NCBI GenBank assembly: GCA_017416185.1
Contig: JAFQDF010000037.1
Location: 1-64,000 of the forward strand
DNA length: 64,000 nt
Direction of reading: 5' to 3'
From: Clostridia bacterium
GTDB taxonomy: Bacteria; Bacillota; Clostridia; Oscillospirales; CAG-272
Shown: piece after piece, positions 3,315 through 11,908 of the stretch
How positions within the stretch are numbered: the first letter of the stretch is position 1
Layout of the letters: the number at the start of each line of letters is the position of its first letter
Notes under the pieces: model-generated
Databases searched by the model: none
The model's input: only the letters and a program-made list of their open reading frames with translations
What the model was told of the DNA's origin: nothing
Program-made: the position numbers and the translations under genes

Positions 3315-4208
3315 ATGAACAAAGTTAAGATAATCACCGATTCCTGTTCGGATCTGTCAGAAGAGCTCTTGGCAAAATATGATATCGACTATTGCCGTAT
3401 GGCTACTTTTCTTGACGGAGTTGAGTCCCCTGCTCTGTTGAGCTGGAGTCAGAATGATGCTCACGAGCTGTACGAAACTATCCGATCGGGTAAGCGGGTA
3501 ACGACCTCACAGGTTCCCACCGAGGAATTTAAAAATGTTTTTACCAAGTATCTTGATTCAGGGTATGACGTAGTATATATCGGATGCTCCTCTAAACAGT
3601 CAGGCTCTGTAAACACAGGTAATCTGATCGCACAAAAGCTTATAAAGGAATATCCCGATGCACGTATACATTGCATTGATTCCTTAAACGCATCCCTCGG
3701 TGAGGGTATGCTTGCCATAGAAGCCGCAAGGCTGGCAAAAGAAGGCTTTGATGCCGACGAAATATGCGAGCGTATCACCGCAATATGCAACAACGTCCGT
3801 CAGTACGTAACCGTACATACCCTCGATCATCTCAAAAAGGCAGGCAGGGTATCGGCATCCTCGGCTTTCTTCGGTAATCTTATGGGAGTGAAACCGATAA
3901 TCACCTCTGACAAAAACGGTGTTCAGATACCCGTAAAGAAAGTCAAGGGCAGAAAAAACTCGTTTACCGAAATTGTAAAGCTGCTCAGAGAGGTAATACG
4001 CGAGCCTGAAAAACAAACGGTATACATAGCCCACGCTGACTGTCAAAAGGAAGAGGTCGAATACCTTAAAGAGCTTATTAAAAGTGAGATAAACTGCAAA
4101 GATATATACGTGGGGATCATAGGCCCCATCATAGGTGCATCCATAGGACCTGATGCCGTCGGAATATGGGGCTACGGTGAAGAGATAGATTTTGAGGGTG
4201 AACAATGA
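3315..4208 (+). CDS. DegV family fatty-acid-binding protein (FakB-like)
   Basis: MNKVKIITDSCSDL... has a typical DegV N-terminus. The ATG at 3315 has a GGAAGGGAG RBS at 8-nt spacing. The ORF-track start at 3276 lacks an RBS and would place the hairpin inside the CDS. Confidence 0.85.
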   Translation: MNKVKIITDSCSDLSEELLAKYDIDYCRMATFLDGVESPALLSWSQNDAHELYETIRSGKRVTTSQVPTEEFKNVFTKYLDSGYDVVYIGCSSKQSGSVNTGNLIAQKLIKEYPDARIHCIDSLNASLGEGMLAIEAARLAKEGFDADEICERITAICNNVRQYVTVHTLDHLKKAGRVSASSAFFGNLMGVKPIITSDKNGVQIPVKKVKGRKNSFTEIVKLLREVIREPEKQTVYIAHADCQKEEVEYLKELIKSEINCKDIYVGIIGPIIGASIGPDAVGIWGYGEEIDFEGEQ

Positions 4209-4830: not shown

Positions 4831-4858
4831 AAAGGACTTCCTTTTTCGAAGTCCTTTT
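4831..4858. terminator. Bidirectional intrinsic terminator (AAAGGACTTC...GAAGTCCTTTTT) between plsY-2 (+) and niaR (-)
   Basis: 10-bp stem with T-runs on both sides. Confidence 0.7.
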
Positions 4859-5370
4859 TATATTTCAGGTGCTATATATCCCTTTTCGGTAAGGGCGTTT
4901 TCAATATTATCAAGCGTTTGCCTGCTGTCTGCGGAAACTGTATGGTAGTGATATCCTCCGGTTATATTCATAAGCTCGGTGGATTTTCCGCTTCGTACAC
5001 CCTCCATAAAATTCTCTATGTCTTCTCTTGAGGCAATACTCAGAGGTGCTTCTATACGCCCATATACCTTATGCCATACGTAGACGTTCTCTACCCTGCC
5101 GCCGAAGGATACGATAACGGAAAGCTCATCCTCGGTCTGCTCCTTGGTATGGCGGAGCTTAAAGGTCTTTTTAACAAGCTCACTCACAGGCAAAAGATAT
5201 CCGCTATGGGTGGATCGTATATCATACCCCTCTGCCTTGAGAGCGGAAATATCGCTGACTACGATCTGACGCGAAACACCGAATTTATCGGCTAAAGCCG
5301 TGCCGTTAACAGCAGCTTCGCTTCCTCTCAAAGTGTCGATTATCGCTTTTCTTCTCTCGTCTGCTTTCAT
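4858..5370 (-). CDS. niaR: NiaR/YrxA-like transcriptional regulator (HTH_11 plus 3H domain)
   Basis: 170 aa with an N-terminal HTH (GTALADKFGVSRQIVVSDISAL) and a C-terminal His-rich 3H-like region (GGYHYHTV). Confidence 0.65.
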   Translation of the reverse strand: MKADERRKAIIDTLRGSEAAVNGTALADKFGVSRQIVVSDISALKAEGYDIRSTHSGYLLPVSELVKKTFKLRHTKEQTEDELSVIVSFGGRVENVYVWHKVYGRIEAPLSIASREDIENFMEGVRSGKSTELMNITGGYHYHTVSADSRQTLDNIENALTEKGYIAPEI

Positions 5371-5431
5371 TTCATCACCCCTTGTAATACTTTACCATAT
5401 TACAACGATAAAGTCAAGTGAATATAGGATA

Positions 5432-5460
5432 TTGCAAAATTTTGTCATATATTGTATAAT
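5432..5460 (+). promoter_or_regulatory. Sigma-A promoter (TTGCAA, 17-nt spacer, TATAAT) upstream of the WYL gene pair
   Basis: Hexamers read from the sequence, 60 nt upstream of the start codon. Confidence 0.45.
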
Positions 5461-5519
5461 AAGTACGGTTTTTGGGACAGTTGATTTTTATAATTAAATA
5501 TAACGAAAGGAGAATGGCT

Positions 5520-6770
5520 ATGGCATACAGCGAGCTTATAAAGAATTTTGAGAATATCCGTGATTATATGCGTGAGTTTTACGTTTACGGCTTCAAGAGC
5601 AGAAACGACTATACCGAAAAGAGCTCACGCTCATACGACGATGAGCGTCGGCGTATGGAAAGCTGGCTTGGGGAGCATATGAGCTTCGTACGTACTCCCG
5701 AGGGTAAAAACGTCTTTATATCTATTGACAGCCGTGTCACGGGACACAATCCGCTCTACAAGGCACTCAAGGCTAAAAGCTTTACCGACAAGGATATCAC
5801 CCTGCATTTTATACTTTTTGACCTACTTCATTCTCCCGAGATATCTCTTTCCCTTTCAGAAATAGTTAAGAATATAGACCGCCGTCTGTCCGAATTTGAC
5901 GAGCCTATGATATTTGACGAATCCACCGTCAGAAAAAAGCTGAAGGAATATACAGAGCAAGGACTGATAGTCACAGAAAAGGACGGCAGAAAAATACTAT
6001 ACAGACGCTCCCCTTCCGTTATGCCTATGGGAATAAGCGATGCTCTGCATTTCTTTTCCGAGGCTGCTCCCGTAGGTACAGTCGGCTCATTTCTGCTCGA
6101 CAAGCAGGGAGAGCATAGGGACAATTTCGGTTTTAAGCATCATTATATCACAAGCGCCCTTGACAGTGACGTTACCGCCAAGCTCTTTATGGCAATGCAC
6201 AAAAAGGCTATCGTATCCGTCTCAAATCATTCACGGTTTGCCCCTACCCCCACGATAAAAAGAATAATTCCCCTTCGTATTTTTATGAGTGTTCAGAACG
6301 GCAGACATCATCTGCTGGCATACGAGGCGGAGTATAATTCTATCAAGGCATTCCGTATTGATTATCTGTCTGACATAAAGATAGAGGAAACTACTCCCCG
6401 CTTTGACGAGCTGAGGGCAGCACTTGATACTATACAGACAAAAATGTGGGGAGTTACGGTAAGAAAGGGACTCTCTGTAGATCAAAATACGGAAAGAGTA
6501 GAGTTTACGGTACGCGTAGAGGATGACGAGGAGCATATAATAAGAAGGCTGCTTCGTGAAAAGCGTATAGGCCGTATAGAAAGACTTGATAAAAATAACT
6601 ACCGCTTTACTGCCGATGTTTACGACATAAGCGAAATGATCCCTTGGATACGTACCTTTATCTGCCGTATAACGAGTCTTGATTTTTCAAACAAGGTCCT
6701 TGAAAAGCAATTTCGGTCAGACATAAAAGAAATGTACCGTATCTACGGTATAGAGGAGGCGGAAATATGA
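5520..6770 (+). CDS. WYL-domain protein 1 (putative wHTH, WYL and C-terminal extension domains)
   Basis: The WYL-like core HHLLAYEAEYNSIKAFRIDYLSDIKIEE, a preceding winged-helix-like segment (DESTVRKKLKEYTEQGLIVTEKDGRKILYRR), and an unknown N-terminal ~120 aa. The ATG at 5520 has an AAAGGAG RBS at 7-nt spacing; the ORF-track start at 5472 is TTG. Confidence 0.6.
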   Translation: MAYSELIKNFENIRDYMREFYVYGFKSRNDYTEKSSRSYDDERRRMESWLGEHMSFVRTPEGKNVFISIDSRVTGHNPLYKALKAKSFTDKDITLHFILFDLLHSPEISLSLSEIVKNIDRRLSEFDEPMIFDESTVRKKLKEYTEQGLIVTEKDGRKILYRRSPSVMPMGISDALHFFSEAAPVGTVGSFLLDKQGEHRDNFGFKHHYITSALDSDVTAKLFMAMHKKAIVSVSNHSRFAPTPTIKRIIPLRIFMSVQNGRHHLLAYEAEYNSIKAFRIDYLSDIKIEETTPRFDELRAALDTIQTKMWGVTVRKGLSVDQNTERVEFTVRVEDDEEHIIRRLLREKRIGRIERLDKNNYRFTADVYDISEMIPWIRTFICRITSLDFSNKVLEKQFRSDIKEMYRIYGIEEAEI

Positions 6771-7678
6771 TATTCAATGAAATATATTCTGCATACTTTA
6801 ATGCCGTAGCCGATATTTTAGCAAAACTTACCGAAGGTGATACCGAGGGCTGTGACCTGTCTGCCATAGTATCAGAACACGCCTTCGGAGAAAGCGCTCT
6901 AACCATCCTCCCCGCCCTTAAAAGCGGTAAATGGCAGTTGGTTCATCCCGATATGACCACCCATATTGCACACAGACCTTCAATGCCCCTGACCGATATA
7001 CAGAAAAGATGGCTTAAAGCCATATCCCTTGACCCGAGAATAGCTCTGTTTGATATATACTTTGAGGGCCTTGAGGACACCGAACCGCTGTTCACCGCCG
7101 AGGATTACGTAATATACGATAAATATTCGGACGGAGACCCCTTTACCGATGAAAGGTATATTTCTCATTTTCGTACTATATTGACAGCCCTGAATCAGGG
7201 ACATAATCTGAAGCTGGAAATATTAAACCGGCGTGGTGAGAGGGTCTATATAAGATGTATCCCCGAAAGGCTGGAATATTCAGAAAAGGACGATAAATTC
7301 CGTCTTGTTACAAGCGGATGCGGCTTTGTCCGTGCCGTCAACCTTGCCCGTATACAGAAATGCAAAATATATTACGGTGACGATATCATACGCTCAAAGG
7401 GGGATGAAAGAAAATGCGACACCCTGCGTCTGAAGATAACGGACGAGCGCAACACTCTTGAAAGATGCCTTATGCATTTTGCACATCTTGAAAAGAACGT
7501 TGAGAGGATAAGCGAAAAGGAGTACATACTCAATATGAGCTACGACATGGCCGATACCCCCGAGATGGTAATACGTGTGCTTTCCTTCGGCCCAACCGTT
7601 GAGGTGATATCACCCGAAAGCTTTAAGGAATTAATAAAAAATAAGTTAAAAGATCAAAAAAGATGCGGATTTTTTTAA
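6767..7678 (+). CDS. WYL-domain protein 2, translationally coupled (ATGA overlap) to WYL protein 1
   Basis: WYL-like segment ERVYIRCIPERLEYSEKDDKFRLVTSGCGFVRAVNLARIQKCKIYY. It is 303 aa with no obvious HTH. Confidence 0.55.
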   Translation: MIFNEIYSAYFNAVADILAKLTEGDTEGCDLSAIVSEHAFGESALTILPALKSGKWQLVHPDMTTHIAHRPSMPLTDIQKRWLKAISLDPRIALFDIYFEGLEDTEPLFTAEDYVIYDKYSDGDPFTDERYISHFRTILTALNQGHNLKLEILNRRGERVYIRCIPERLEYSEKDDKFRLVTSGCGFVRAVNLARIQKCKIYYGDDIIRSKGDERKCDTLRLKITDERNTLERCLMHFAHLEKNVERISEKEYILNMSYDMADTPEMVIRVLSFGPTVEVISPESFKELIKNKLKDQKRCGFF

Positions 7679-7695
7679 GTTCGCATCTTTTTTTC
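7661..7695 (+). terminator. Intrinsic terminator (AGATGCG...CGCATCT plus a T7 run) overlapping the stop codon of WYL protein 2
   Basis: 7-bp stem with a large loop containing the TAA stop, followed by TTTTTTT. Confidence 0.5.
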
Positions 7696-7787
7696 CGTGA
7701 AAAAAACGGTATAACTTAGTAAAATATACTTGCAAGCCGATAAAGTCAGGTATATGAAATTACTACGGTACATAAGGCTATGCCGAA

Positions 7788-7895
7788 ATGTATGCCGTAT
7801 GCTTGCGGCAAATTTGATTGAGTCTTGAAAACTCATAGCAAATTTTAAGGACCTTTCAGGTCCATCTATCGCAGGTTCGAATCCTGCCGTATGTT
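7788..7895 (+). ncRNA. tRNA-like element. It has a canonical T-arm (GCAGG-TTCGAAT-CCTGC), an upstream stem-loop (GGACC-TTTCA-GGTCC), an anticodon-like hairpin (TGAGT-CTTGAAA-ACTCA) and a weak 7-bp acceptor-like pairing (ATGTATG/CGTATGT). This is a non-canonical cloverleaf, possibly a Y-RNA-like or tRNA-mimic RNA, or a tRNA remnant.
   Basis: Folded by hand. The GGTTCGAATCC T-loop lies on the + strand in a 470-nt gap free of plausible CDS between the WYL genes and the SPFH/rtcB pair. There are three G-U pairs in the acceptor, no D-arm and a 13-nt insertion, so it is not a standard tRNA. Confidence 0.3.
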
Positions 7896-8149
7896 GTGAA
7901 ACATATCGCCGGTGGATTGGTATTTTGATGTCGTGCAAAAAAGCACTCTACCCTGATGCAATTACTCTGCCGAAATAAGGTTTACCTTGTCTAAGCAATA
8001 TGTAAATGGCCTTGTCCGAAAACGGATACCGTTGTTCAAATATAAAAGCCAAAATTATTTCCGTTTTTATATGCGTCTGCTTAAGTTTTTGGCCGTCATA
8101 AGCATATGAGTAATTGCAAACGTATATTAACCGTAAAGGAGTATATATA

Positions 8150-9253
8150 ATGATAAAAAAAGTGATAATTAATGAAAATCAAAGAGGGTTTCTCTTCAAG
8201 AACGGAAAATACGTAAAGATGCTTTGTCCCGGTAAGTATTATACAAACGGTACAAAGGAAATAGAAATATCAAATTTAGATATGCCCGTAGATCCTCACA
8301 GATGCTCTGTCGATACACTATTAACCGACAAAGCAGTCGCAGATTCCGTATGCTTAGTAGATGTCGGAGATGAGCAGGTTGCGCTCCATTTCGTCAACGG
8401 AAAATTCAAATCCGCACTTACTCACGGAAAGTATATGTTCTGGTCCGTACAGGATAAACACGAATATAAGATGATAGATATATCTATCACAGAAGCCGAC
8501 GAAAGCGTTCCCGAATACATTTTTTCTATGATCCCCTCAACACTCTATGTAAAAATAGAGGTAGAGGAGTATCATAAAGCATTGCTTTACTTCAATCAAA
8601 GATTTGTAAAGGTTTTAGATGCAGGTACATACTTTTACTGGAGAAATTCTGTCAAAATAAGCGTAAAACACATCGACACCAGACTTACTCAAATGGATAT
8701 TACGGGACAGGAAATACTTACGCAGGACAAAGTTTCACTTCGTATCAATATGATCTGTAACTACCGAGTAACCGATTACGTAAAAATATTTACCGAAATT
8801 GACGATTTTACCGAGCAACTGCATATAATGGCTCAGCTCGCGTTACGTGAATACGTAGGCAAGCACAAGCTGGACGATATCCTTGAAAAGAAAGACGAAA
8901 TGTCCGAATTTGTTTTTAATAAATTAAAAGCAAAGGAAAGTGAATTGTTCGTTAATATTGCAAATGCCGACGTTAAGGATATAATTCTTCCCGGCGAGAT
9001 CAGAGCGATAATGAATACTGTGCTTATCGCAGAAAAACGCGCTCAGGCAAATGTTATAACCCGCCGCGAGGAAGTAGCATCCACAAGATCCCTTTTGAAT
9101 ACGGCTAAGCTTATGGATGAAAACAGTACCTTATATAAGCTTAAAGAGCTTGAATACGTAGAACGCATCTGTGAAAACATCGGTAATATCAATCTCAACG
9201 GTAACACCGACGTACTGTCCCAGCTTACAGGTATCCTGAGAGGCGGTGCTTAA
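8150..9253 (+). CDS. SPFH/band-7 (stomatin/prohibitin/flotillin/HflKC) domain protein with a duplicated N-terminal SPFH-start motif
   Basis: Core match to SPFH: VNIANADVKDIILPGEIRAIMNTVLIAEKRAQANVITRREEVASTRSLLNTAKLMDEN. Two SPFH-start-like segments are present (VIINENQRGFLFKNGKYVKMLCPGKYY and VEEYHKALLYFNQRFVKVLDAGTYFYW). The ATG at 8150 has an AAGGAG RBS. Confidence 0.7.
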   Translation: MIKKVIINENQRGFLFKNGKYVKMLCPGKYYTNGTKEIEISNLDMPVDPHRCSVDTLLTDKAVADSVCLVDVGDEQVALHFVNGKFKSALTHGKYMFWSVQDKHEYKMIDISITEADESVPEYIFSMIPSTLYVKIEVEEYHKALLYFNQRFVKVLDAGTYFYWRNSVKISVKHIDTRLTQMDITGQEILTQDKVSLRINMICNYRVTDYVKIFTEIDDFTEQLHIMAQLALREYVGKHKLDDILEKKDEMSEFVFNKLKAKESELFVNIANADVKDIILPGEIRAIMNTVLIAEKRAQANVITRREEVASTRSLLNTAKLMDENSTLYKLKELEYVERICENIGNINLNGNTDVLSQLTGILRGGA

Positions 9254-9260
9254 CAATAAA

Positions 9261-10466
9261 ATGATAGAGATAAAAGGAAATTTTAATACCGCCCTCTGCT
9301 TTACAGACAGTGTGGAGGGCTTGGCATACGAGCAGATCAAAACGGTCTGCGATATAGAGGCGTTTGCCGATAATAAGATAAGAATAATGCCCGACGTTCA
9401 CGCAGGTGTGGGCTGTACCATAGGTACGACGATGACTCTTACCGACAAGGTAGTTCCCAATATGGTAGGCGTGGATATCGGCTGCGGTATGTATACCGTA
9501 GAGCTCGGAAAGATCGATATTGACCTTGAAGCATTTGATACCGCCGTTCATACTATTCCCTGCGGCAAGGCTGTATGGGAGGGCAGAAAGGAGCGCTTTG
9601 ACCTTGAGGAGCTGCGCTGCTTCCGTGCGCTTAAGGATTCAAAAAGACTGGAAAGAAGTATCGGAACCCTTGGAGGCGGAAACCACTTTATAGAGATAGA
9701 TAAGGACGAAGATGGCAACAAGTACCTCGTTATCCATTCCGGAAGCCGTAACCTCGGCACTCAGGTGGCGGAGTACTATCAGTCTATTGCCGTTGATCTT
9801 AATATGGGCAAGGAGGAGTACTTTGACCGCCGTGAGGAGATAATCCGCACCTACAAAGCTGAGGGCAGACGCTCTGAAATTCAGGATGTCTTGAAGGCTA
9901 TGGCAAAGGAGTGGAAGGATAAGGAGCCTACACTTCCCCGCGGACTCTGCTATCTCTACGGCAGATTTATGGAGGATTATATCCACGATATAGACATCTG
10001 TCAGCGCTTTGCTACCCGCAACCGTGAGAAGATGGCAGAGATAATTCTTGAGCTGACTGGAATAGCGGCGGCACATTCCTTCCATACGATACACAATTAT
10101 ATCGACGTTGAGGCTATGATACTCCGTAAGGGCTCTGTGTCTGCAAAGGCAGGCGAGAAGCTCCTTATCCCCATCAATATGCGTGACGGCAGCCTTATCT
10201 GTATCGGCAAGGGAAACTCTGACTGGAATTTTTCCGCACCCCACGGTGCAGGCAGACTTATGAGCCGTACCGATGCCTTTGAGAAGCTGACTATGGCAGA
10301 GTATGAGGCGCAGATGTCAGGTATCTACTCCACCTGTATCAACACCTTTACTCTTGACGAGTCACCTATGGCATACAAGTCTATGGAGCATATAGTATCC
10401 AACATCACTCCCACCGCCGATATAGTTACACATATAAAGCCTATATACAATTTCAAGGCAAATTAA
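9261..10466 (+). CDS. rtcB: RtcB-family RNA 3'-phosphate/5'-OH ligase (short ~400-aa form)
   Basis: Motifs MPDVHAGVGCTIG, GGGNHFIEI and NFSAPHGAGR (the GMP-histidine motif). An alternative GTG start at 9246 would overlap the SPFH gene by 8 nt. Confidence 0.8.
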   Translation: MIEIKGNFNTALCFTDSVEGLAYEQIKTVCDIEAFADNKIRIMPDVHAGVGCTIGTTMTLTDKVVPNMVGVDIGCGMYTVELGKIDIDLEAFDTAVHTIPCGKAVWEGRKERFDLEELRCFRALKDSKRLERSIGTLGGGNHFIEIDKDEDGNKYLVIHSGSRNLGTQVAEYYQSIAVDLNMGKEEYFDRREEIIRTYKAEGRRSEIQDVLKAMAKEWKDKEPTLPRGLCYLYGRFMEDYIHDIDICQRFATRNREKMAEIILELTGIAAAHSFHTIHNYIDVEAMILRKGSVSAKAGEKLLIPINMRDGSLICIGKGNSDWNFSAPHGAGRLMSRTDAFEKLTMAEYEAQMSGIYSTCINTFTLDESPMAYKSMEHIVSNITPTADIVTHIKPIYNFKAN

Positions 10467-10488
10467 GGGGCAAGTTGCCCCACCCATA

Positions 10489-10524
10489 CTGCGCCCATTT
10501 GTGCAGTAATACAAATCACACGCC
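10489..10524. repeat. Copy A of a ~36-bp intergenic hairpin motif (CTGCGCC-ATTTGT-GCAGTAAT-ACAAAT-CACACGCC)
   Basis: It shares the TTTG-loop(CAGT)-CAAATCACACG core with copies at 27440-27475 and 53983-54020. Confidence 0.5.
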
Positions 10525-10545
10525 ACAAGGCAATTATCTATATAT

Positions 10546-10585
10546 AAAAAGCTTCGGATCAAACCGAAGCTTCTTTTGTTTTTTT
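10546..10585 (+). terminator. Intrinsic terminator for rtcB (AAGCTTCGG...CCGAAGCTT plus CTTTTGTTTTTTT). The stem overlaps the 3' end of the convergent MATE gene.
   Basis: 9-bp stem with a long T-run. Confidence 0.7.
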
Positions 10586-11908
10586 CATTACCGTAATATA
10601 CATTATAAATCCCATTACAAGGGTCAGGGTGTCGGCTATGGGCTGGGCGCTCATAAGCCCCGTCTCGCCGCCAAAATTCTTAAGTATTATAAGTAAGGGT
10701 ATAAGCAGAACAAGCTGTCTTACCATAGAGAGCAGAAGTGACTGGAACCATCTGCCCATAGACTGGAATATTGCGCCGAAGAGGTTAGTGAAGCACATAC
10801 CCGGCACGCATAAGAACCATATACGTATAAAGTCTATTCCCTTCTCAACAGTCTGTGTCTCGGAGGTAAATATGTGAAGTATAGGCTCGGCAAATATCTC
10901 TGCCAACGCTATACAGAGTCCTGCGTAGATGGCAAGTATTATAAAGGAAAGACTGCTTACAGACTTGAATCTCTTAAGGTTTCCCGCACCGTAGCAGTAA
11001 CCTAACAGAGGCATTATACCCTGTGTGAGACCAACGGTTATCTGTATTCCCACAGAGCCTATCTTCTGTACCGTTCCCTGTGCGGCGATAGATATATCAC
11101 CGTAGGATGACATACTGTTAGTAAGAAGGATGTTGGCTACAGTACCCAGGATTATAACAGCAGCGGCGGGAATTCCTACAAGGATGACCGAGCTTGCAAT
11201 ATTCTTATCAAATCTGAATTTCAGAGGATTAAGAACTATTACGCTGTCCTTTGTTCTGAGGGCTACCGTAAGAAGATAACCGAAGGATATAAGGTTGGAT
11301 ATAAAGGTAGCTATTCCCGCGCCGCCTATTCCCATACCTAACACGGAAACGAAGAGTCCGTCAAGAACTATATTCAACACTCCGCCGAGCGCAACGCCTA
11401 TACTTGCCTGCTTGGTATTTCCTTCAGAACGGATAAGATGCGCCAGCACCATAGAGCCTACCGTGGGTATTCCGCCTATCGTAAAGGTCCAGAAAAGATA
11501 GCTTTGGGTGTGTGCAAGAGTAGACTCGGTAACTGCTCCTGCCATACGGAAAATGGGTAGGTTAAATACGTTTAATATAAGTATCAAAAGCCCCACGGCA
11601 ATAAAGGAACCGTAAAAGCCGAAGGTAGAGGCAAGACGGGCATTGTCCGGCTTCTTTTCACCCAGAGAACGGGAAATAAAGCTGTTGGCGCCGATACCGA
11701 AAAGGTTTGCCACCATAGTAAGGCACATAAATATGGGGAAGCTTACCGTCAAGGCTGCAATCTGTGAGGGATCGTTGGTATGTCCCACAAAGAAGGCATC
11801 GGCAAGGTTATATATAAGTACCACAAGCTGACTCAGAACCGTGGGTATGGCTAACTTTGCCACTGCCCTCGGTACCGTCATATTTTCAAAAACGTCTTTA
11901 TTGTTCAT
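10559..11908 (-). CDS. MATE-family efflux transporter
   Basis: 449 aa with 12 predicted TM helices and the MATE N-terminus (VPRAVAKLAIPTVLSQLVVLIYNLADAFFVGH). Confidence 0.85.
   Translation of the reverse strand: MNNKDVFENMTVPRAVAKLAIPTVLSQLVVLIYNLADAFFVGHTNDPSQIAALTVSFPIFMCLTMVANLFGIGANSFISRSLGEKKPDNARLASTFGFYGSFIAVGLLILILNVFNLPIFRMAGAVTESTLAHTQSYLFWTFTIGGIPTVGSMVLAHLIRSEGNTKQASIGVALGGVLNIVLDGLFVSVLGMGIGGAGIATFISNLISFGYLLTVALRTKDSVIVLNPLKFRFDKNIASSVILVGIPAAAVIILGTVANILLTNSMSSYGDISIAAQGTVQKIGSVGIQITVGLTQGIMPLLGYCYGAGNLKRFKSVSSLSFIILAIYAGLCIALAEIFAEPILHIFTSETQTVEKGIDFIRIWFLCVPGMCFTNLFGAIFQSMGRWFQSLLLSMVRQLVLLIPLLIILKNFGGETGLMSAQPIADTLTLVMGFIMYITVMKKTKEASV

Follow-up and report, generated by a model that had tools for sequence, protein, structure and literature searches.

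RNA ligases of the RtcB type are widespread in bacteria, and their substrates and cofactors are still largely obscure. The rtcBA operon is controlled by RtcR, a CARF-σ54 activator that senses tRNA fragments (PMC7790460), and in Pseudomonas aeruginosa PA14 an SPFH gene, paFlo8, is located inside the RtcR-controlled rtc locus (PMC13086221). A further RNA-repair system was predicted by Burroughs and Aravind in 2016 (NAR 44:8525). As quoted by Wang et al. (bioRxiv 10.1101/312249), it consists of RtcB beside a Band-7 protein and a "band 7-associated tRNA", and in the quoting passage of that preprint the latter is described as lacking experimental validation; a summary of the survey, in extract, is found in PMC6514570. 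Here, we describe a cassette at positions 5432-10585 of a 64-kb window, the whole stretch of DNA that was analyzed, from a Clostridia bacterium (GCA_017416185.1, contig JAFQDF010000037.1). It is composed of two genes for WYL-domain proteins (WYL-A and WYL-B), a structured RNA of about 350 nucleotides (nt), and the genes for an SPFH/Band-7 protein (SPFH in the following) and for RtcB. We think that this cassette is probably a damage-induced RNA-repair module of the class that combines Band-7/SPFH, a tRNA-like RNA and RtcB, in which the WYL pair replaces RtcR. For that class, the 2016 survey is said to have assigned a scaffolding role to SPFH/Band-7 and Rot/TROVE modules, as cofactors that have cognate non-coding RNAs.

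With the predicted Band-7 system the cassette shares the SPFH gene next to that of RtcB (7 nt apart), the tRNA-like RNA in the adjoining intergenic region and the sporadic distribution across phyla. The earlier note on this DNA had held that no Rtc system described so far accounts for the SPFH partner or for the RNA. This claim to novelty fails, because the combination of Band-7, tRNA-like RNA and RtcB was already predicted in 2016 and because P. aeruginosa carries an SPFH gene in its rtc locus. As far as the published system is conveyed by the papers citing it, the RNA of the window differs from it in scoring below every tRNA threshold and in possessing a permuted tRNA-like part with a closed acceptor. 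The length of about 350 nt, which includes a hairpin at the 5' end and a 3' domain of 160 nt, the WYL pair and the promoter element are further differences from what these papers convey, and some of these features may already be contained in the 2016 description itself. What may be new is that a WYL pair with its promoter element fills the regulator slot, that the tRNA mimic has a permuted topology and that a large 3' domain is present, and the literature searched contained no paper that connects WYL proteins with RtcB or Band-7.

The rtcBA/RtcR system and the cassette have in common that a dedicated sensor-regulator, which possesses a ligand-binding domain, is assigned to RtcB, and as the P. 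aeruginosa locus combines an SPFH gene with RtcR control, the WYL pair can be seen as the occupant of the regulator slot. In contrast to the rtcBA system, the cassette contains a helix-turn-helix (HTH)-WYL-WCX protein and a WYL-WCX partner together with a predicted σ70-type promoter, and neither a σ54 enhancer-binding protein nor RtcA is encoded among the six genes examined (4858-11908). RtcR, Rsr, PrfH and archease are likewise absent from these six genes, as the earlier note had stated. The Salmonella rsr-yrlBA-rtcBA operon is similar in being an RNA ligase operon with a structured RNA whose tRNA-like module mimics the T- and D-arms and possesses an acceptor-like stem that is closed, and with a gene for a ring- or cage-forming RNA-binding scaffold. 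However, the scaffold of the cassette is SPFH and not Ro, and no TROVE/Ro, RtcA or RtcR is found in the same six genes.

That the cassette is a conserved functional module, as had been supposed from the window, is borne out by the recurrence of the four-gene order, with flanks that differ in every locus examined. Three long contigs possess a WYL protein (400-452 amino acids, aa), a 303-aa protein, a gap of about 500 nt, Band_7 and RtcB in this order and with wholly different flanks, and one of them adds RlaP. A diverse SPFH profile detected at least 597 loci in species-representative genomes, and 80 of these were kept for a census (loci are referred to by L numbers where needed); they derive from Clostridia, Erysipelotrichaceae, Paenibacillus, Bacteroidota, Treponemataceae and one gammaproteobacterium. 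Genes within 7 kb were assigned with hidden Markov models (HMMs) built from our own alignments in the 59 of the 80 loci that had enough flank. The WYL pair was found in 29 of the 59 and RtcB in 36, and both occurred together in 21. The invariant unit of the loci is the RNA followed by the SPFH gene on one strand, and since the WYL pair and RtcB are frequent, exchangeable partners in the census, the core of the system is the RNA plus SPFH. Where the WYL pair is present, three arrangements occur: co-oriented, divergent with RtcB 5' of the RNA and SPFH, and divergent without RtcB nearby. An alternative ligase or RlaP 3' of SPFH in loci without RtcB was considered and rejected from three of the eight loci that have the WYL pair but no RtcB, where the genes at this position are unrelated (peptidyl-prolyl isomerase, MsrA, sortase, AraC-type regulator) or have no Pfam match.

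The RNA fills nearly all of the 470-nt gap between the WYL-B and SPFH genes. It is predicted to consist of three parts, each supported by covariation, namely a 5' hairpin P1 (7766-7797), a permuted tRNA-like core (7871-7920) and a 3' structured domain of about 160 nt (7958-8117), all on the + strand like the whole cassette. P1, which has a 2-nt bulge and was folded with RNAalifold from 46 loci of several phyla, carries the signature GGUGC...GUAUGCC, which is common across phyla and starts with GGUAC in the window. Its compensatory changes are evident at the base in pair 6-39 (GC 34, AU 11) and at pair 11-32 (AU 19, CG 13, GC 8, UA 3), and four pair types are found at two inner pairs. Between P1 and the core lies a variable middle region (7810-7863), derived from a minimum free energy fold and alignments, which is the least certain part of the RNA. 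It shows a stem (7810-7816/7839-7845) around an anticodon-like arm (7819-7835, with the 7-nt loop CUUGAAA), which is followed by a hairpin (7849-7863). In L001, L003 and L031, the middle region holds a second T-arm, and solely in L031 an ARAGORN tRNA spans it.

The tRNA-like element that had been noticed in the gap is real, though degenerate. In the window, ARAGORN found no tRNA or transfer-messenger RNA (tmRNA) gene and Rfam likewise gave nothing at gathering score, whereas the Rfam tRNA model RF00005 reached 18.5 bits at 7808-7895 with a relaxed threshold, compared to a gathering score of 29. A canonical tRNA or tmRNA gene can be dismissed from these sub-threshold scores, from the loop-capped acceptor-like stem and from the arm order T, acceptor, D. 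The T-arm of the window is perfect (GCAGG-UUCGAAU-CCUGC, 7871-7887) and is followed by a closed acceptor-like hairpin (7889-7906) and a D-like hairpin (7909-7920). In most loci, the T-loop motif GGUUCGAWUCC is found on the + strand 250-450 nt 5' of SPFH, often in two copies, and the T-stem covaries strongly in 76 loci, with one pair being, for example, CG 34, GC 17, UA 10 and AU 6 times. At the matching upstream position, L035, L065, L071 and L053 pass the Rfam tRNA gathering score, and L009 and L031 contain an ARAGORN tRNA.

The arm order from T-arm to closed hairpin to D-arm is constant across the loci. The closed hairpin directly after the T-arm varies in sequence from locus to locus, with a stable one present in 59 of 76 loci, and the D-arm reads AGCUCAGUGGUAGAGC in distant loci and CCGGUGGAUUGG in the window. 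Distant loci add a 5-bp arm with a 7-nt anticodon-like loop after the D-arm. As judged from these alignments, the tRNA-like fold is circularly permuted, with the acceptor stem capped and the break placed at the position of the variable loop. A model of the T-arm, the acceptor-like hairpin and the D-like hairpin (R1) has a single match in the 64-kb window (7869-7924, 70 bits) and 62 matches across the loci. In the R1 alignment, which is fitted to the model and thereby somewhat favors structure, 96.9% of the cells pair, compared to 75.5% in shuffles, and the covariation is 0.375, compared to 0.129 in shuffles and at most 0.065 when the structure is slid. Membership in the YrlA family was rejected, with the Rfam YrlA model scoring 14.6 bits against a gathering score of 69. 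In topology, the RNA of the window resembles YrlA solely in the closed acceptor stem beside the T-arm; it differs in the break of the tRNA-like fold in the variable-loop region and in that its distant relatives have an intact anticodon-like arm. As a separate observation, loci of Bacteroidota (Chitinophagaceae, Sphingobacteriales, Flavobacterium) contain arrays of 2-12 canonical tRNA genes on the same strand about 1.5-3.5 kb 5' of SPFH (L043:3695-4798, L064:3544-4774, L065:301-1404, L066:3836-4629, L073:4059-4599, L078:5050-5463 and L083:4679-5446), which are additional to the tRNA-like RNA directly 5' of SPFH.

The stretch between the tRNA-like core and the ribosome-binding site (RBS) of SPFH is also structured and is not a spacer. 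The 3' domain is closed by a 10-bp helix of GCAAUUACUC (7958-7967) with GAGUAAUUGC (8108-8117), ends 18 nt before the SPFH RBS, and contains the motifs GGAUACCG, which is invariant, CCAAAAG/UUUCCG and GGCCG. RNAalifold predicted 43 pairs in this domain from 13 loci, 32 of them with compensatory changes. A model with 173 positions and 47 pairs (R2) matched 43 loci, in all cases on the + strand and directly 5' of SPFH, and it matched the window once (7957-8119, 137 bits). In the R2 alignment, 89.9% of the cells pair (59.7% in shuffles) with a covariation of 0.756 (0.217 in shuffles, at most 0.136 when slid), and both sides change in 45 of the 47 pairs. No family of Rfam 15 matches the 3' domain. 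R2 does not find it in the Paenibacillus or Bacteroidota loci; by direct alignment, Paenibacillus has a related 3' domain with GGAUACCG (54 pairs, 28 compensatory). At fixed points, the domain tolerates large insertions, of about 100 nt in L008 (6694-6968) and about 45 nt in L012 (981-1198), as large structured RNAs typically do in their peripheral helices.

The cassette comprises two transcription units, both of them predicted, with WYL-A/WYL-B forming unit 1 and the RNA, SPFH and RtcB forming unit 2, which starts from a conserved promoter. In co-oriented as well as in divergent loci, the region upstream of the RNA contains the arrangement (A/G)AGTTCGCA(G/A)CTTTTTTTCCGTGA-N~20-TGGTAAAAT, in which TGGTAAAAT is the extended -10 of the relatives' promoters. 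This element is kept in divergent arrangements, where no upstream gene requires a terminator. Its core TTCGCANCTTTTTT was counted with at most one mismatch in 35 loci with the WYL pair and in 34 loci without it. It is present upstream of the RNA-SPFH unit in 26 of the 35 and upstream of RtcB in five further loci (four with the WYL pair, and L044), compared to 3 of the 34 loci without the pair. With the same tolerance, it was found in no Paenibacillus or Bacteroidota locus of the census. In the window, the element is represented by TTCGCATCTTTTTT (7680-7693), which abuts the -35-like hexamer of the predicted promoter of unit 2 (GTGAAA-17-TAAAAT, 7697-7725) and could serve the WYL pair as an operator or activator site. 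The co-occurrence of element and pair, which is a correlation, is the best evidence for WYL control of unit 2 and suggests such a control. As the element adjoins the -35 hexamer, an activation is suggested, as with PafBC and DriD, and repression would be possible too. A scan of the window sequence predicted no terminator between the RNA and SPFH, so that the RNA is probably co-transcribed with SPFH and rtcB, either as a long leader or as the precursor of a stable RNA.

For unit 1, a consensus scan predicted a promoter-like site (TTGCAA-17-TATAAT, 5432-5460, 10 of 12 matches), and the sequence reads as an intrinsic terminator directly after WYL-B (7662-7695), with the hairpin GATGCG...CGCATC (7662-7687) and seven T, which is also present in the loci of co-oriented relatives. 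Unit 2 is closed by a terminator-like hairpin with a T-run (10549-10582) that overlaps the 3' end of the convergent MATE gene. The cassette is flanked by this MatE gene and by a divergent 3H+HTH_11 (NiaR-like) gene; further flanking open reading frames of the window are DegV-like and PlsY-like. The four co-oriented genes, their ATGA overlap, the terminator and the tRNA-like element were all found at the positions given in the earlier note, whose anatomy of the cassette is correct. Both promoter regions (5406-5416 and 7741-7751) contain the 11-mer CGATAAAGTCA (core CGATAAA), which is also present once, inverted, at about 5283-5292 inside the niaR-like gene; as an operator common to both promoters it was rejected, with no equivalent word found in other loci, and it may be due to chance. 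Two peculiarities were seen in the promoter regions of relatives. In L009, the segments at about 4000-4130 and 6360-6450, which lie 5' of WYL-A and 3' of WYL-B, have long exact words in common (19, 13, 10 and 10 nt), which looks as though the promoter segment had been duplicated. In L021, inverted arrays of GTGGTCA-type heptamers (about 6265-6300 and 6395-6430), with GTTAGC-type equivalents in L022, flank an AT-rich segment of about 100 nt between the divergent WYL-A and the RNA promoter, and this segment could be a small mobile or invertible element.

WYL-A (5520-6770, 416 aa) and WYL-B (6767-7678, 303 aa) are, according to profile searches and to searches with predicted structures, genuine WYL/WCX proteins with the DriD/PafBC/BrxR fold, in agreement with their first assignment. 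The WYL profile of PADLOC matches WYL-A with 4e-11 and WYL-B with 2e-9. The AlphaFold2 model of WYL-A has a predicted local distance difference test (pLDDT) value of 58.4, and Foldseek matches it to DriD, BrxR, PafBC and CapW at about 1e-8; that of WYL-B (pLDDT 70.5) matches PafBC with 3e-8 and also DriD, CapW, BrxR and the Cas13-associated WYL1. In Pfam, WYL and WCX remain just under the cut-offs for both proteins, as does PaaX for WYL-A. Among the homologues, PF13280 (WYL) is annotated on most of those of WYL-A and PF25583 (WCX) on a minority of those of WYL-B. HMM searches against the PDB gave no matches for WYL-B and weak matches to SmtB-like HTH domains alone for WYL-A. In WYL-A, an N-terminal region of unknown fold is followed by a winged HTH of the ArsR/PaaX-like type (residues ~90-165), a WYL barrel (~230-291) and WCX (~325-408), while WYL-B is made up of a WYL barrel and WCX. 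The sequence of WYL-A has an exact database match (P0241, "WYL domain-containing transcriptional regulator", 416 aa), and so has that of WYL-B (P0121, "WYL domain-containing protein"), both under the names given by NCBI. The length of this match and a GGAG 8 nt upstream identify ATG 5520 as the start of WYL-A, and starts at ATG 5514 or 5472 were rejected from the homologue length and the RBS spacing. The ATG of WYL-B lies inside the TGA of WYL-A as an ATGA overlap, with a GGAGG upstream of WYL-B. The pair resembles the ssDNA (single-stranded DNA)-activated regulators PafBC and DriD in the WYL and WCX folds (Foldseek 1e-8 to 3e-8), and pafB-pafC in that two adjacent WYL genes are translationally coupled and a candidate site abuts the -35 hexamer. 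It differs in that WYL-B has no confident HTH, in that WYL-A has an extra N-terminal region of about 90 aa, and in that the sequences are too distant for HMM detection against the PDB.

SPFH (8150-9253, 367 aa) matches Pfam Band_7 with 1.8e-29, and its family profile matches stomatin with 6e-28 over residues 138-342, the stomatin entries of the PDB being 16-chain assemblies. No transmembrane segment was found, the highest 19-residue Kyte-Doolittle hydropathy being 1.08, and the position of the membrane anchor is taken by an N-terminal extension of 135 aa that weakly repeats the first SPFH strand. With a stomatin-type SPFH domain and no hydrophobic segment, SPFH can be regarded as a cytoplasmic stomatin-like protein. 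The SPFH domain and the helical region following it (residues 138-342) align with stomatin, one of the SPFH cages, among which PH1511, QmcA, HflK/C and flotillin are also counted. In contrast to these cage-forming proteins, SPFH lacks a hydrophobic hairpin or transmembrane helix, possesses the soluble 135-aa extension, and is paired with an RNA instead of NfeD. Its start is ATG 8150, and TTG 8114 was ruled out by homologues of 366-367 aa. More than 7,900 close homologues, named "slipin family protein", are found in Oscillospiraceae and Acutalibacteraceae, and at E<1e-30 the homologues form 495 clusters at 50% identity. Some relatives (P0002, P0003, P0361 and P0364-P0368) have lengths of 490-790 aa and were matched in two to five stretches, which suggests tandem-duplicated SPFH units in one polypeptide.

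RtcB (9261-10466, 401 aa) starts at an ATG 7 nt past the SPFH TAA (9251-9253), or with 406 aa at an in-frame GTG (9246) that overlaps the SPFH end. It matches Pfam RtcB with 2.6e-55 (188.8 bits), and its metal- and GMP-binding motifs align with those of P. horikoshii RtcB (MPDvHaG, DIgCG, GNHF, HsGSR, HGAGR); the catalytic motifs are kept. With the NCBIfam RtcB models, the scores remain far under the cut-offs (134 vs 407 bits and 103 vs 272 bits), and the protein, which represents a divergent clade, is no equivalog of these models. Its description as a short RtcB holds in comparison with the archaeal and human enzymes (481-507 aa), but not in comparison with E. coli RtcB, which with 408 aa has about the same size. 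At least three RtcB clades pair with the SPFH-RNA unit, with E-values to the RtcB of the window of about 1e-200, 1e-35 and 1e-22, which indicates a displacement of ligases within one system. In L003, though not in the window, a RlaP (PF10127) nucleotidyltransferase of the "RNA ligase-associated Polβ" family is encoded directly 3' of RtcB (9362-10120).

From these parts, the following mechanism can be proposed, the steps of which beyond transcription are inferred from Ro/YrlA and from stomatin cages. WYL-A and WYL-B would form a PafBC-like hetero-oligomer that recognizes a nucleic-acid ligand through its WYL domains; the most plausible ligand would be RNA fragments that arise from ribotoxins or stress nucleases. 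Such a sensing would parallel that of tRNA fragments by RtcR and that of ssDNA by DriD and PafBC. Bound to the TTCGCANCTTTTTT element beside the -35 hexamer, the complex would turn unit 2 on. The RNA, released from the 5' leader or active within it, would then join an oligomeric SPFH ring or cage to form a cytoplasmic ribonucleoprotein (RNP). In this RNP, the tRNA-like core could attract tRNA-handling factors or broken tRNAs through a surface shaped like a tRNA, or it could serve as a decoy for anticodon nucleases, and RtcB, produced by coupled translation, would reseal 3'-phosphate (or 2',3'-cyclic phosphate) and 5'-OH ends. In its full form, i.e. with the ~350-nt RNA and the membrane-less SPFH as a vault- or Ro-like cytoplasmic RNP cage that captures broken tRNAs for RtcB or decoys anticodon nucleases, and with a WYL hetero-pair that senses RNA fragments, as a second way of damage-sensing RNA repair that does not depend on RtcR, this proposal is conceivable, though less probable than not.

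Several findings weigh against the repair module and its WYL control. Within 7 kb, RtcB is absent from 23 of the 59 census loci, and the WYL pair occurs without RtcB in eight of the 59; with these 23 loci, and with unrelated downstream genes in those of the eight that were checked, the system is not strictly RtcB-centered. The candidate operator of the window is also the 3' half of the WYL-B terminator, and the association of element and pair is correlative. Residues 1-125 of WYL-B are low-confidence helices for which the AlphaFold2 model and the search gave no HTH match, unlike in PafB and PafC. A P. aeruginosa ΔpaFlo8 mutant displayed no phenotype in general assays (PMC13086221). A predicted viral or prophage contig (IMGVR_UViG_3300045988_016381; L086:4751-8563) encodes WYL-A, WYL-B and, after a 434-nt gap, RtcB, and it has no SPFH, no 3' RNA domain and a degenerate T-arm alone (R1, 21 bits). 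Finally, the RNA could act purely in cis.

This last possibility is a serious rival that does not exclude the RNP, and we consider it conceivable though for itself rather unlikely: the ~350-nt RNA would be a cis-acting leader, such as a riboswitch- or T-box-like sensor or a nuclease bait, whose tRNA-like core binds a ligand or is cut by an anticodon nuclease and in this way sets the translation or stability of the SPFH-rtcB message. It would fit to the position of the RNA, which is always directly 5' of SPFH on the same strand, with no terminator predicted before SPFH and 18 nt between the 3' domain and the RBS, and also to L086, the single locus without SPFH, which lacks the 3' domain as well. 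However, the 3' domain is closed by its own outer helix, and the consensus structure sequesters neither the RBS nor a terminator. In its size and in having several domains, the RNA is more like the stable RNAs of RNPs, such as Y RNA and YrlA, and where RtcB is upstream in a divergent arrangement, the RNA lies between RtcB and SPFH, inside the operon.

It is improbable, in our view, that the cassette is an anti-phage or abortive-infection system, in which the WYL pair would silence a toxic effector, as BREX and CBASS are silenced by BrxR and CapW, and the SPFH-RNA-RtcB module would be this effector and could, for example, ligate RNA aberrantly or sequester tRNA. BREX, CBASS and CRISPR loci are indeed controlled by WYL regulators with the fold seen here, and the genomic context, which differs per genome and in one neighborhood holds a serine recombinase, suggests lateral mobility. 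Yet the search with PADLOC 2.0 gave matches for generic CRISPR-associated WYL profiles alone, with none for SPFH and a weak one of RtcB to an unrelated reverse-transcriptase model, and thus no relevant match for either protein. Furthermore, the flanks in the window are housekeeping genes, RtcB keeps the motifs of a working ligase, and the cassette encodes no effector of the nuclease, protease, pore or NADase kind. The module is also essentially absent from the viral contigs of IMG/VR, for which reason a phage origin was rejected: in this collection, the SPFH protein and the diverse SPFH profile had no matches, WYL-B matched the one locus L086, and the 3'-domain motif gave two chance matches, neither of them with an R2 match or SPFH. 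The genes might also be neighbors by chance, with SPFH acting as an ordinary scaffold of membrane microdomains, RtcB serving as a housekeeping ligase and the WYL proteins regulating other genes. This might be suspected from the many loci without RtcB or the WYL pair and from the P. aeruginosa deletion without phenotype, but it is hardly credible, and chance adjacency is excluded by the synteny data. The linkage survives rearrangement and change of flanks across phyla, SPFH has no membrane segment, the RNA and the WYL-pair-specific promoter element travel with the genes, and different RtcB clades have been recruited.

The Band-7/tRNA-like branch of RNA repair has been an in silico prediction since 2016, and its parts are now defined for direct testing: the ~350-nt RNA has covarying helices, the SPFH partner is soluble and stomatin-like, and for the regulation there are a candidate operator and a putative sensor of two WYL proteins. 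The family is abundant in gut Clostridia, as is evident from the more than 7,900 SPFH homologues and the at least 597 loci in species-representative genomes. If the RNP-cage reading is true, the 2016 prediction would not cover the 3' domain and the WYL control, which would be new components, and with the RNP of SPFH and the RNA, bacteria would have their first example of an SPFH assembly that is bound to RNA and free of membrane. WYL domains would then gain a role in the sensing of RNA damage, parallel to that of the CARF domain in RtcR.

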